DNA of 64,000 nucleotides, from assembly GCA_000002435.2 (NCBI GenBank), contig CM018791.1; one strand, 5' to 3'. Below, in pieces: positions 17,301-24,818 of this stretch. Source of the DNA: Giardia intestinalis (lineage: Eukaryota). The notes under the pieces were generated by a model. The model was not told where the DNA came from. It worked only from the letters and a program-made list of their open reading frames with translations, and did not search any database. How positions within the stretch are numbered: position 1 is the first letter of the stretch; each line of letters starts with the position of its first letter. Made by a program: the position numbers and the translations under genes.

Positions 17301-20300
17301 CCAGCTCTGCTGGCATTTGGTCCCCTCTGGTCACTCAAGGGCGTAACCTCAGGATGGGTCCACGAGACAGCGCATGCTGATGGCAGAAGACAGCAAAGCT
17401 CTTCTCAAATATCTCGACCTATCAACTAGTGCGGTCCCAAAGCACACTGTGGGTTTTGACGGACACGCAAGTACGGATCCAGACACTTTGAGATTCTAAG
17501 ATTACTCAGCAAGGACAACACAATTCACCCTGCTTCATCTGAGAGGTCCAAGCCCCAGCTCTTCAGAAGCCCAGCATCAGTGCTCAGCTGGCTCATACGC
17601 TCTGCTGTACCTTGTTGAAAACCACATCGACGGCTCCAATTCGGCGGTTACTCTGGACTCACCAGCCATTACAGTCGTGCCACCATCAGGGCTAAGTTTC
17701 CCGCTTCACCTGTGGTCTGTTACAAAGGCATAATTCGTGACCGGATGCAAAGGGCTTGATCCATTCGGTACGCTATAGCTACCGGTGTACTTCACTAGGC
17801 TCACTGGCTCTGCCAGCATCTTCGAAGGTAGAGACGCGCCACCATCACAGATCACACAGCCCCCTGCACATCCTGGAAGGGCTCTTGTGTTGTGCAACGT
17901 CAGATCCTGCCTGTCTGATACAGAACACATGGTACTGGACGGCCAGAGAGAGAATAGTGGGCGCTTGCACCCCACACCGAACCAGTCTGACTGCACTTGG
18001 GCCATAGTTCTTTGACCCCGCTGCCATAGACAGTGAAGGACGCATCCTTCTGGAGATGGGATCTCTCGAGGGTTGGCTCAGGGTTCAGTCTGAGCCCGGA
18101 ACTCTAGGTATGGAGTGCACCACGCAATGAGGACAGTAGTAGCAGGGACACTGTTTGGACCAGGTGGCCTTCTCACATTCCTCATTGCACGTGCCTGCAT
18201 CCCATGCGGTCCACTCCTTCGATATGTAACAGTTGTGACCCAGATGGTTAGACTTTGGACCCACGTGCTATTGCACCTGTTGTAGCAGCAAAGAGGACGA
18301 GTCACTTGCTTGTAGGCTTTGTCTACCTTCAGGCCTATCCAGATCTGCTACTGTGCTAACACTACTGGTACCACGCAGCCTATGTGATGGTCATGTCCCC
18401 TTCATGCCATTCTTGATACCAAGTCCGATAGGAGCATCCAACAGAATATCCCTGGCGTTGTGCAGTCTTCATATGATGATCGCGTTAGACTCACTGCGCA
18501 CCCACCGTTGCAGTAGTTGAATTGCTGGGCTCGGGCACTGCTGGATACTTTTACTGATAGACGATGCCAGAAAAAGCAAAGATAAAAGGCCTCAAAACCC
18601 CCTGTCCGTGAATGGACTCGTTATGTGCAACGTGCCTACCTCTATCGTGTCATGTAAGACAGTAGGATTTTGCTGGCACAGTACATTGATACAGTGATGA
18701 TGCAGAGAAGGCAGCTCTGACTTACATAGCGATAGAAAGCCCGGTGATATAGATAGCGACATTATGTGATGGCGGACCCTAGCCGATAGGCCATGGGGAT
18801 ACAGAGCCCTTGCAACAAAGCTGTTCTTCGCATGAAATAGTAGAGTAGCATGATGCACCACGGGAGAGAGTCCCGCTTCCTCGTTCTGTCTGTTACACTA
18901 TAGCCCAAGCATCGAACTCGCTGATGGCTCCTTATTCATTCCCCTATGAAGCCTCTGGGCACCTGTTTAATCATACTACTTAGCCCTACATAAGAATAAA
19001 ATCCACACCTAGCACTAACAATTGAATACCTCATTCTGCCATAACATTTCCGGTGTACTGATTCCAATCTCGAGCAGCTGAGTGGTTGGATGCATCCTTG
19101 TCAGGGGTAGTGTAGGCATGAAAGACTAGACCCCAACGACAGGTTTGCACTTTAACTTCTCTTGTTTACTCCTTGGTGGCGCCCTATCTCTCCACTTAGG
19201 CGTGTGTTCTGAGATTGCCATAAGGCAGACAATGGGATCTTGCAGGACTAAAAGCACCGATGCCATCTACCTCCAGAATCTGGTAATCTGGGCACCCACG
19301 TCGCAGTTCTGGCAAACAACACCTTGTTCCTATACCATCCGCTCTGACCATGTGCTTCTCTTCCCTGAGCCATTCTCGATGACAATATTCATATTGACAC
19401 GGAGAGCTGTTCTGTCATGCAAAGTGGTTTTGCTTCGAGCCGGTTGTATGGCAATCCAGTTGTTCCTCATCCTCTCACAGTTTTCTCTGCAGCAGTCCCC
19501 TAGTGATAACGCTGTACGGCTCGAATCTCTAACAAGGTGCCTTACTAATATGTCGCTCTTCTGTATACGTTCGGCGCCCAGCTGGCCCACGCTGTCTCCG
19601 TAGCTTAGTTGGATGCCTCCATGCACAGGGATTCGTCTGGCAAAAGTGGCTGTGCCGTATAATGGATTGTGTTGATCTGCATAATCGGAAGTGCATGCCT
19701 TTTGTTCGTATGCTGCTGAGGGCGCTGGCTGCAATGCGTGTCGAGAATAGATTGCTTTGGATCGGATTACCCTGTGCCTTTTGCGCTCTAGGGGCTAGGA
19801 TCTTACTCCCCCAATACTAGTGCCGGACTCCAGTTGGATTATAGAAAAGGGGCTCTGTCCAGCTCTGGCCTTCTTAGTACGAAGATGCTAAGGATGCCTC
19901 TAGGATCCTCTCTGCTGCGGTTCTATGTGCGCCTACACTGGTCTGCAGTGGTAAGACGGTCCCTATCCTAGTTTTGGCCTCTCGCTATGTCGAGTACAGA
20001 GAACTTGGGACGCCTCTGGGTTTCGCTCCTACAGCAGAATGAAACAAGGGCACGGGGCTCTAGGCTTTGCTAGATACTTGTCTGGATGAAGGAGTGAGCG
20101 CTAATGTCAGAGGTTTTGGCTGGCTGGTGTGTTGGTGGCATGCTCGGCATAAACTGGTGTCGGCCTGTTCTTCTCGGAGCCTCGGTAAAGTCGGTCGGCT
20201 ATGAAGGGAAGGAGCTTATGACAGTCTGTCCAGTGTAACCGACAACATCTTTGCTTAGGATAGATTTACCATCTAGTTCATCAGAGTGTGTCAATGAGTG

Positions 20301-22642: not shown

Positions 22643-24818
22643 CGCACAGAGCTGGTTTCAGGCTGCCCGTGAAGGAGATGTAACTTTGCTTTCGGATCAC
22701 ATCAGCTCATATGCTAATCTGCAAGATGACGAGGGGAACACGGCTCTGATGTACGCCGCAAGAGAAGGCAAGATCCAGGCTGTTGACCTGCTCGCTTCCC
22801 TAGAAGCGGGGAAACTTAACAATGCCGATGAGTCGGCGATTATCCTGGCTATTGCGCGGGATTTCTACCCAGTATGTGCGCGTTTGTTCGAGCTAGAGTC
22901 TAAGATGATCCTCCCCAACAACAAAACCCTTCTCATGATTTCTGCGGAGGCAGGAGCTGTGAATTGCACACGCTTTTTAGCGCGATACTATGATGCTGAA
23001 GCAGACAGCTCTGGGAGGACCGCATTGGAGTATGCAGCTGCACGCGGCTCAGCAGAAATAATTCAGATTCTCTTGAATAGAGACACGCGTCTGGGAACTA
23101 GAGAACTTGCGAGAGCCATTGCGGTGACAAGACACGTAGGTCACACAGATCTTGCAGATCTTCTGCAGCTCCACCTTACACAACTGCAGGCCGTTGAAGG
23201 CACTTGTCAGAAGTGTGCACGGCTTCAAGCATACATCACTGCGCTAGAGGAAGAGAACAGAAGAATGTCAGCGAGCAATGCACAATGTATGCAAACAATT
23301 GCAAAGAAGGACCACGAAATAGAACAACTCAAATCCACAGTCAACAATTTACTACTGGACACAGACATGCGAAAAATCTTTGCTATAGGGGACGAGGCCC
23401 ATGTAACCGAACGACAGGGTGTTCACCGCAAGCGCAGAAAAACACTGAACACAAAATCTATGAGGGCAGACCTTTTCAACATTGCTGACGTTGAGATAAA
23501 TGTTGCGGCATTTCTAGACTACATGGCCTACGTGACAAAATTTTACAGATTTTCAGATCTTGCTACTACAGTTAATTCGCTTATGGGGAAATCCCACCGA
23601 GATCACTTACTAGAGAGAAACCCCGAGGATGCAGTGCCTAATCTGGAAAGTGAGATATCCAAAGAGATCGTACGCACGCTTGCCAAGATGCGGGGCTCAG
23701 CATTCAACATCTGCACTGGCATGAAAAACCTGGTGTCTCTCATTGATAGTCAAGTGCAGCTGCAGGACCTGATTTCCAGTGACATACTGGAGCAGTCTCC
23801 TCTGATAGAAGCAGTCATCTCACATGACTTGTCTAAGCTAAGAGAGAACCTCCAATATGTAGGTCTCCGTGATTCCAAGGGAAGAACCGCGCTGATGCAC
23901 GCCAGTGTTTGCGGGACCCGGGACTCTATACTTGTGCTTGCTCCGCTGGAGGCAGGACTCCGTGACTTAGATGGAAAACTCGCCATAGATCACTGTCTGG
24001 AACACAATCGCCTGGATGAGGCCGCGATTGTCCTTCCATACGACATGCCTGAGTACCGAGAACTACCAATAGCGTCATCAGAATTCAACAAGACGCCTCT
24101 CATGTGCGCAGCAGAGGCAGGAAGGCTTCTGGACTGCTTTTGCTACCTGCAGCTAGGGCTAGCACAGCAGCGAGATTACCGACAGTATACAGCGTTGATG
24201 TTTGCCGTAGAGGCTGGTCAGGAAAGCACGGTGAGAATGCTCCTTCGTCAGGAATCAACTTTACGTGACTGCGAAGGACAAACGGCCCTGTACCACGCTG
24301 CCAGTCATGGGCATGCTAGCTGCGTCAAATTGCTAGCCAGTGCAGAGGCCAGGGCCCAACGGCATGAGACAAAATGGACTGCGCTGATGGTGGCTGCTTA
24401 TAATGGTCATGAGGAGTGTGTTCAGGAACTGCTAAGTTACGAAGCCGGAATGCGTGATGTTAATTCCTGCACTGCCCTTATGCTGGCAGCGCAGCGGGGT
24501 CACTTAAATAGCGTGAAGGCACTTCTCAGTGTGGAGGCCCGGAAAACAACAACCAGCGCATACTACCGAGGGGAGGGCTGCACTGCTTTAATGATGGCAG
24601 CATTCTACGGACATAAGGAGTGTGTGAAGGTGCTTCTACCCGCGGAGTACGACTGTGAGAAGCAGTGCATAGACTCAGAGACAAAAAGTACAGCGCTGGA
24701 CTACGCCTGTATCCCGGACAAGGGCGTTTCTCAGGAGACCAAGGAAGAAATCATTAACATCATAGAAACATTTCTTCACGCAGGATCTGAATTCAGCGGC
24801 GCCACTTCCGGATCTTAG
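22623..24818 (+). CDS. Ankyrin-repeat protein with a central coiled coil (Giardia protein 21.1 type), 731 aa
   Basis: There are multiple G-TALM-A ankyrin repeats at both ends. The ATG at 22623 is preceded by gagatatatgaaaATGG. Confidence 0.75.
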   Translation: MKMEIFNAQSWFQAAREGDVTLLSDHISSYANLQDDEGNTALMYAAREGKIQAVDLLASLEAGKLNNADESAIILAIARDFYPVCARLFELESKMILPNNKTLLMISAEAGAVNCTRFLARYYDAEADSSGRTALEYAAARGSAEIIQILLNRDTRLGTRELARAIAVTRHVGHTDLADLLQLHLTQLQAVEGTCQKCARLQAYITALEEENRRMSASNAQCMQTIAKKDHEIEQLKSTVNNLLLDTDMRKIFAIGDEAHVTERQGVHRKRRKTLNTKSMRADLFNIADVEINVAAFLDYMAYVTKFYRFSDLATTVNSLMGKSHRDHLLERNPEDAVPNLESEISKEIVRTLAKMRGSAFNICTGMKNLVSLIDSQVQLQDLISSDILEQSPLIEAVISHDLSKLRENLQYVGLRDSKGRTALMHASVCGTRDSILVLAPLEAGLRDLDGKLAIDHCLEHNRLDEAAIVLPYDMPEYRELPIASSEFNKTPLMCAAEAGRLLDCFCYLQLGLAQQRDYRQYTALMFAVEAGQESTVRMLLRQESTLRDCEGQTALYHAASHGHASCVKLLASAEARAQRHETKWTALMVAAYNGHEECVQELLSYEAGMRDVNSCTALMLAAQRGHLNSVKALLSVEARKTTTSAYYRGEGCTALMMAAFYGHKECVKVLLPAEYDCEKQCIDSETKSTALDYACIPDKGVSQETKEEIINIIETFLHAGSEFSGATSGS

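Follow-up and report, generated by a model that had tools for sequence, protein, structure and literature searches.

We analysed a 64,000-nucleotide (nt) stretch of DNA, referred to below as the window, which protein searches and a matching pair of VSP genes assigned to chromosome 3 of Giardia intestinalis isolate WB (assemblage A). An open reading frame (ORF) on its minus strand (20291..22642, 783 codons when counted from TTG) encodes a multidomain cathepsin B-like protease of the papain family (C1A). This ORF is very probably the right-hand, 5'-clipped boundary copy of a Giardia C1A protease gene, lying on the outer border of a large palindrome (inverted repeat 1, IR1) and homogenised by gene conversion. 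We observed where the breakpoint lies, that the two copies are identical, that the intact copy occupies the ancestral site, that the junction recurs in other samples and that the arm boundaries differ between assemblages.

We searched the ORF translation against Pfam and the PDB. Peptidase_C1 (PF00112) matched residues 50-257 (window 21872..22495, minus strand) with an E value of 3.8e-39 and 135.5 bits against a gathering cut-off of 20.7, and Kre9_KNH (PF10342), an Ig-like domain, matched residues 590-678 (20609..20875, minus strand) with an E value of 4.6e-13; its score of 50.2 bits exceeds the cut-off of 24.6, and the match extends over positions 2-94 of the 94-position profile. The best PDB matches were cathepsin B (E 6e-28), and Cys62 of the ORF aligned with Cys29 of mature cathepsin B. 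The full catalytic set is encoded: Gln56 of the oxyanion hole, Cys62 (codon at 22457-22459), His212 (22007-22009) and Asn232 (21947-21949), all on the minus strand. Residues 266-545 contain 22% Ser plus Thr and are followed by a (PE/PD)n hinge at residues 546-589 with 66% Pro, Glu or Asp (linker at 20906..20968, minus strand). The architecture proposed in an earlier note on this DNA, a papain-family domain followed by a Ser/Thr-rich region, a PE/PD hinge and a Kre9/KNH-like domain, was thus found in full, with both domain families recovered by the Pfam search.

The position of the ORF relative to the palindrome was established from the window and from assembled contigs of other samples. A repeat finder paired 1-9318 with 11259-20576. 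The complementarity was exact between 1-9263 and 11314-20576, the first mismatch fell at 9264, and small mismatches and indels followed up to about 9513. Position 1 is the partner of 20576, so the edge of the window truncates IR1, whose left arm is present as 1..9263. Logan contigs carrying an intact copy of the protease gene (L002-L004) matched the window at 100% identity between 22520 and 19159, with 3,362 mismatch-free nt in L004, and were unrelated to it upstream of 22520. The outer end of the right arm is therefore 22520, and the arm spans 11314..22520, a perfect arm of 11,207 nt whose outer part (20577-22520) is identical to L002-L004. In the intact gene this boundary corresponds to codon 62 (...LPT/NFTYRG), and the clipped copy (20291..22520, minus strand) comprises codons 62-804 of that gene plus the stop codon. 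The earlier note had placed the gene at the outer boundary of IR1, which holds, but had set the boundary at about 22640; the real one lies ~120 nt further in, inside the ORF.

The intact copy (P0015, KAE8303242.1) is a protein of 804 amino acids (aa) that begins with a Met and a hydrophobic, signal-like start, MMVLLPFLLLLYGTLG, with ~45 further residues between this start and NFTYRG. Its last 95 codons and stop codon occupy 1..286 on the plus strand, the remainder lying off-window to the left. The ORF fragment at 14..286 ends in ...TVTPTFTVLDDTH, the same C-terminus as that of the clipped copy, and positions 9674-10548 of L002 equal window 1-875 at 100%. A third paralogue, P0016, is located on chromosome 5 (4.0 Mb); the Val codon in ITVRD showed that window 1..286 is of the P0015 type and not the P0016 type. 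The clipped copy differed from P0015 at 0 of 742 residues and from P0016 at 22 of 742. The intact paralogues are single unspliced ORFs. Both chromosome 3 copies lie on the 1.97-Mb chromosome, and exactly two entries separate their accessions (KAE8303242 and KAE8303245), a gap that fits the two VSP genes between them. An intact copy with a pre-pro sequence had been expected to the left of the window, and P0015 is such a copy, with its Met, signal-like start and pro-region on the same chromosome; the left copy is not truncated, and the DNA of the two copies was identical from 22520 inward. P0015 lies downstream of NUDIX, ParA and eIF4E genes in the WB-type contigs, and the same arrangement was found in assemblage E (isolate P15, L007) and assemblage B (L001), so that the position beside eIF4E is the ancestral one and the intact copy the original. 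Three related proteins from non-WB assemblage A sources (P0017, P0019 and P0024, including GenBank ESU35034.1) end in ...GVEGSGRTQHDLSR instead of ...GVEGVAGLNTIYLD..., and these altered ends suggest that the 3' junction is a different one there, near cathepsin codon 756.

Because the arm boundary falls inside the ORF, its first 41 codons belong to an unrelated flank. The non-cathepsin read-through (22521..22660, minus strand) consists of the 5' flank and first codons of a divergently oriented ankyrin-repeat protein gene (22623..24818, plus strand), which forms the unique right flank of the palindrome and is the neighbour also in L005, L006 (P15) and L010 (isolate GS). The start of the ankyrin gene at 22623 overlaps the first codons of the clipped ORF, as the earlier note had recognised. 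That note also had the frame opening at a TTG directly after a TGA; the TGA (22658-22660) is in fact five codons upstream of the TTG (22640-22642). In P15, the same pre-junction stretch adjoins the ankyrin gene and is 83% identical up to window 22524, with an in-frame stop codon there. The 41 codons are thus ankyrin 5' flank that is open in this frame by chance, and the junction-specific sequence of the clipped copy is ...HHNLSRAGNFTYR. We also considered whether these codons could be a decayed signal peptide and pro-region, as MAFFT paired LQIYFVLTG with LLLLYGTLG and RPGGPHHNLSRAG with LPDGPDNADLTRAA. This was rejected: in local alignment, 22521-22622 scored 14 against the intact 5' end, the shuffle mean was 15.8, and 273 of 300 shuffles scored as high or higher.

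The minus strand of 22700-22400 contains only two ATGs. An out-of-frame ATG at 22580 begins an ORF of 14 codons, and the one at 22435 (22433..22435) encodes Met70, the first in-frame Met, eight residues past the catalytic Cys62. The earlier observation that no in-frame ATG precedes the catalytic Cys is therefore correct. GenBank holds a 714-aa "Cathepsin B-like cysteine proteinase" (KAE8303245.1 / XP_001704385.2) that is 100% identical to the ORF from Met70 on; Cys62 and Gln56 lie upstream of Met70 and are absent from this AUG-initiated product. The body of the ORF has no frameshifts and no stop codons. Since the duplicated segment starts at codon 62, the clipped copy has no ATG, signal-like N-terminus, short pro-region or promoter of its own; flank sequence stands in the place of a signal peptide and an inhibitory propeptide. 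A copy that starts at the breakpoint in this way has the form of a duplication-boundary pseudogene, and it is most likely a non-functional boundary copy. As the Met70 product is without Gln56, Cys62 and a secretion signal, the locus would make no secreted active protease.

The palindrome itself could be identified with a published structure. Two identical VSP genes lie inverted in the window, 2686 bp apart, a spacing within the 2-4 kb expected of such pairs. The left one (7290..8945, plus strand; Pfam VSP E 1.3e-75) encodes 551 aa ending in CRGKA, and the right one (11632..13287, minus strand) is its mirror image. They are the pair GL50803_00136003/136004, listed for chromosome 3 in Table 2 of the chromosome-scale WB genome as "136003 / 136004, -> <-, 551 aa, 2686 bp" (Xu et al. 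2020, PMC7000408). Measured from the VSP stop codon, the inner divergence points come after 318 and about 570 nt; the Sanger-based analysis of Adam et al. (2010, PMC2996952, Table 5) gives "318 (572)" and a 2687-bp spacing for the tail-to-tail pair vsp7. IR1 is thus this published tail-to-tail VSP pair. Its flanks diverge abruptly at 9263/9264 on the inner side, with imperfect pairing to 9513, and at 22520/22521 on the outer side. Along the locus, eIF4E is followed by the intact cathepsin, a gene-poor 7 kb, VSP, 2.7 kb, VSP, 7 kb, the clipped cathepsin and the ankyrin gene.

The palindrome centre (9264..11313) comprises imperfect inner arm ends (9264-9513 and 11063-11313) and a non-palindromic core (9514-11062). 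The inner arm ends carry G-rich repeats of the GGTGAGGC type (9406-9513 and its mirror), and the 1.5-kb core is GC-rich (about 58%) with no Pfam match. According to published tables, all 12 tail-to-tail VSP pairs of WB are spaced 2.5-2.8 kb apart, and this common spacing hints at a shared central element. The gene-poor 7 kb of each arm (287-7289 and 13288-20290) contains no ORF longer than 154 aa, which is unusual for the gene-dense Giardia genome; the surroundings of VSP genes have been described as gene-poor (PMC7000408). The P15 counterpart of this stretch is ~68-71% identical, which looks like neutral drift. In the window, the gene-poor stretch contains one exact match per arm to the Giardia fused branch-point/3' splice motif CTGACACACAG (3644-3654, plus strand, and 16923-16933, minus strand), where by our estimate about 0.06 exact matches would be expected by chance in the window.

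The junction between the ankyrin and cathepsin sequences was found in other samples. L005, a Logan contig from another sample, contains the DEAD helicase gene, the ankyrin gene and the clipped cathepsin; it is 97.9% identical to WB, without gaps over the junction. Its divergence from WB was even and came to 2.4% for the duplicated gene and 2.3% for the ankyrin gene. Another Logan product, P0027, carries the exact junction peptide of the WB type. In assemblage E (P15, L006), the ankyrin flank is followed by 365 nt and then by cathepsin codons ~430-804 only; the 365-nt stretch showed no similarity to either strand of the cathepsin gene or to the assemblage B ankyrin flank. In assemblage B (GS, L010), no cathepsin sequence was found in the 4.8 kb beyond the ankyrin gene. 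However, 89 nt located ~594 nt from the ankyrin ATG of GS matched, at 97.8%, sequence 139-229 nt past the stop codon of the B cathepsin gene. The repeat in B starts ~139 nt beyond that stop codon, and the assemblage B short-read contigs L011 and L012 end directly ahead of this start, as would be anticipated for a repeat border. The arm border therefore differs by assemblage. In A it lies at codon 62 and the right arm holds 743 cathepsin codons; in E it lies near codon 430 and the arm holds 372; in B it lies downstream of the gene and the arm holds none. These differences suggest that the boundary has moved over time. The P15 right arm, as far as L006 reaches, has a single VSP gene (18086-20002) flanked by ~1-kb inverted repeats (16857-17900 and 20068-21113, 97.3% identity), and the palindrome centre in assemblage E appears to be built otherwise than in WB.

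Within each genome the copies were nearly identical, and between assemblages they had diverged by 12-23%. The WB arms showed 0 mismatches in the 9,263 nt within the window and 0 in the 742 shared codons. The clipped copy of P15 was 99.7-99.8% identical to both intact P15 copies, and the P15 copies were ~85-88% identical to those of WB. The junction is older than the split between WB and L005, and the ankyrin flank is older than the split between assemblages A and E. Without homogenisation, the WB arms would be expected to differ by at least 2.4%, the level between WB and L005, yet they do not differ at all. The duplication is older than the split, yet copies in one genome resemble each other more closely than orthologues of different genomes do, which is the pattern of concerted evolution. 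In addition, 16 of the 25 residues that differ between the L005 and WB copies have the state of P0016, the WB chromosome 5 paralogue, which indicates that exchange between loci takes place as well. For Giardia, gene conversion in the vicinity of VSP genes has been reported on other grounds (PMC12669663).

These data suggest a mechanism in which conversion from arm to arm would keep overwriting the clipped copy with functional sequence, giving it a pristine look, and in which it would occasionally exchange with the third paralogue. The boundary would most likely shift when repair synthesis overruns the old border and re-joins the flank. It is also conceivable, although we consider it doubtful, that VSP palindrome arms grow outward stepwise and swallow parts of neighbouring single-copy genes, with assemblages B, E and A as successive stages. 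If so, VSP palindromes in general would generate copies and fragments of non-VSP genes, keep them uniform and spread them, all in an organism that has sex rarely or not at all, and a catalytically dead 714-aa protein driven from the ankyrin promoter region would be a possible by-product.

Several points weigh against our interpretation or limit it. Beyond window position 1, the left arm is a reconstruction based on protein identity and on short-read contigs from other samples of the WB type. The direction of the boundary change, expansion or loss in B and E, is not polarised, since G. muris offers no synteny here: its cathepsin and DEAD/ankyrin genes lie on different chromosomes, with no palindrome. 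That the clipped copy is silent is something we infer from its sequence. Its body carries no disabling mutation, a state that conversion or selection would each give, and the reference annotation lists the locus as a protein-coding gene of 714 aa. These last points bear on the reading that the copy is expressed as annotated, namely as a cytosolic, catalytically dead Met70 product transcribed antisense from the ankyrin promoter region, which we regard as unlikely. Met70 is encoded by the first in-frame ATG with just one short out-of-frame ORF ahead of it, the frame is open in L005 too despite 53 nucleotide differences, GenBank annotates the locus as a gene, and Giardia promoters are reported to fire bidirectionally. 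However, the 714-aa product is not conserved, as the P15 locus keeps codons ~430-804 only, after 365 unrelated nt, and the assemblage B locus has no cathepsin sequence. The open frame is accounted for by conversion, and by our own estimate 53 random substitutions would avoid a stop codon about once in ten cases in any event. The product would, moreover, have neither a signal peptide nor the catalytic Cys. If expressed, it might act as a pseudo-protease or as a carrier of the β-sandwich and Kre9_KNH domains with a new role, for which we likewise see little chance.

It is highly improbable that the gene is complete, with a Met, signal and propeptide supplied by a cis- or trans-spliced exon or with translation from a non-AUG start such as TTG. 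Trans-splicing is known for a few Giardia genes (PMC10711314), the first 20 residues from the TTG are hydrophobic, and GCTAACAG at 22591-22584 (minus strand) has a loose similarity to a branch point with a following AG. However, the Giardia motif CT[AG]ACACACAG had no match on the minus strand of 22400-22700 even when two mismatches were allowed, the CTAAC is not conserved in P15 (TTAGT), whose frame has a stop codon, the 41 upstream codons are unlike the real 5' end, and the intact paralogues are unspliced. The candidate acceptor near 22585 (GCTAACAG) was therefore rejected, as it lacks a motif match with two or fewer mismatches and is not conserved in P15. A spliced upstream exon would have overturned the truncation claimed in the earlier note, and no splice-acceptor motif was found at the 5' end. 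We give similarly little credence to the idea that the palindrome and the clipped copy are a long-read assembly artefact, for example a fold-back chimaera. Its arms are indeed 100% identical over more than 11 kb, and the WB-type short-read contigs L002-L004 pass the boundary position unbroken. However, the ankyrin-cathepsin junction recurs in independent assemblies of other samples and assemblages (L005, P0027 and P15 L006), the 2010 analysis from Sanger data (PMC2996952) had already recorded this inverted VSP pair with matching spacing and inner divergence points, and the 2007 annotation had a separate C-terminal fragment, GL50803_119224. A boundary-truncated copy kept identical by conversion thus remains the best explanation of the locus.

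The window contains a further example of clipping at a repeat border. A second inverted repeat, IR2, pairs 28089-31516 with 47128-50555 (3,428 nt, 100% identical), the arms being 15.6 kb apart. Its full gene (46584-50384, plus strand) encodes a coiled-coil protein of 1266 aa, and its other copy (28260-31523, minus strand) is without about 181 N-terminal codons and opens at TTG, another 5'-clipped copy. P15 holds homologous sequence for both IR2 arms. Beyond IR1, the ankyrin gene (plus strand) and a gene for a DEAD-box helicase similar to SPB4/DDX55 (minus strand) overlap at their 3' ends by 26 nt (24793-24818), and the same overlap occurs in the L005, P15 and GS loci. An Rfam scan of the whole window gave no family at the gathering threshold.

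Both the palindrome, as a published VSP pair, and the gene, through the reference annotation, were already known, and the feature is of an ordinary kind: a boundary-truncated duplicate homogenised by conversion, and no new type of element or enzyme. The literature we searched had no mention of the outer border of this pair, of the clipping of a protease there or of a border difference between assemblages, and nothing specific was found on tag 119224 or on a cathepsin, pseudogene or inverted duplication at this locus. The annotated 714-aa proteinase would begin past its catalytic Cys and without a signal peptide, and it should be treated as a boundary copy. This affects how many C1A proteases, a group of candidate virulence factors, are counted in Giardia, as well as read mapping and proteomic assignment to the intact gene; except across the junction, reads and peptides of the clipped copy are the same as those of the intact gene. 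The locus is also a clean, dated example of inverted repeats flanking VSP genes that are kept identical by conversion while their borders move between assemblages, and it bears on how an apparently asexual tetraploid reshapes its gene content near antigen genes.

We compared the encoded protein with known proteases. The papain-fold match, the Gln-Cys-His-Asn set and the closest structures (cathepsin B) place it with the C1A proteases of Giardia (CP2/CP14019 group) and with cathepsin B. It differs from strict cathepsin B in a shorter occluding-loop segment (CEDYWNRTYPYPTETC) without the His110-His111 pair, as judged from the alignment to 9s60_A, and in its active-site motif, which is CGCCY as opposed to CGSCW. 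Furthermore, the 804-aa family adds a C-terminal β-sandwich array, the PE/PD linker and Kre9_KNH; among the database matches, this full-length architecture occurs in Giardia only. A structure predicted for the ORF protein from an alignment of 6 sequences had a mean predicted local distance difference test (pLDDT) score of 49.6 and left the peptidase domain unmodelled. Its confident part was limited to residues 275-445 (pLDDT 80-94), which formed β-sandwiches, and Foldseek matched the model to generic immunoglobulin and macroglobulin-domain arrays with template modelling (TM) scores of 0.1-0.2. The model supports tandem β-sandwich domains in the C-terminal half and nothing beyond that. The weak best structural matches of this half (window 20291-21847) were the arrays of macroglobulin domains in complement C3/C5 and in alpha-2-macroglobulin, and the G. 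muris orthologue P0005 has one extra domain with a faint Pfam MG2 match.

With regard to the repeat, IR1 is one of the inverted VSP pairs of Giardia, with the identical ORFs, the spacing and the inner divergence that have been tabulated. However, an outer (5') divergence point is missing from the published tables for tail-to-tail pairs. The IR1 arms extend 11.2 kb outward, across the gene-poor 7 kb, and terminate within a non-VSP gene, which leaves a clipped copy of a protease. Similar partial genes are known from plastid genomes, where expansion and contraction of the inverted repeat yields truncated border genes such as ycf1 and rps19. Like them, the clipped copy starts at the border, is identical to the full copy, has one end missing and varies in its border by lineage. 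Unlike the plastid repeats, IR1 lies on the nuclear chromosome of a protist, has a spacer of only ~1.5-2 kb and an antigen-gene centre, and a third, dispersed paralogue takes part in the exchange. The ampliconic palindromes of the primate Y chromosome, whose arms undergo arm-to-arm gene conversion, offer a second comparison. IR1 resembles them in having near-identical arms although the structure predates lineage splits, as its divergence is 0 within WB, 2.4% between WB and L005 and ~12% between WB and P15. IR1 is, however, far smaller, its arms are mostly non-coding, and nothing indicates that IR1 preserves gene function.

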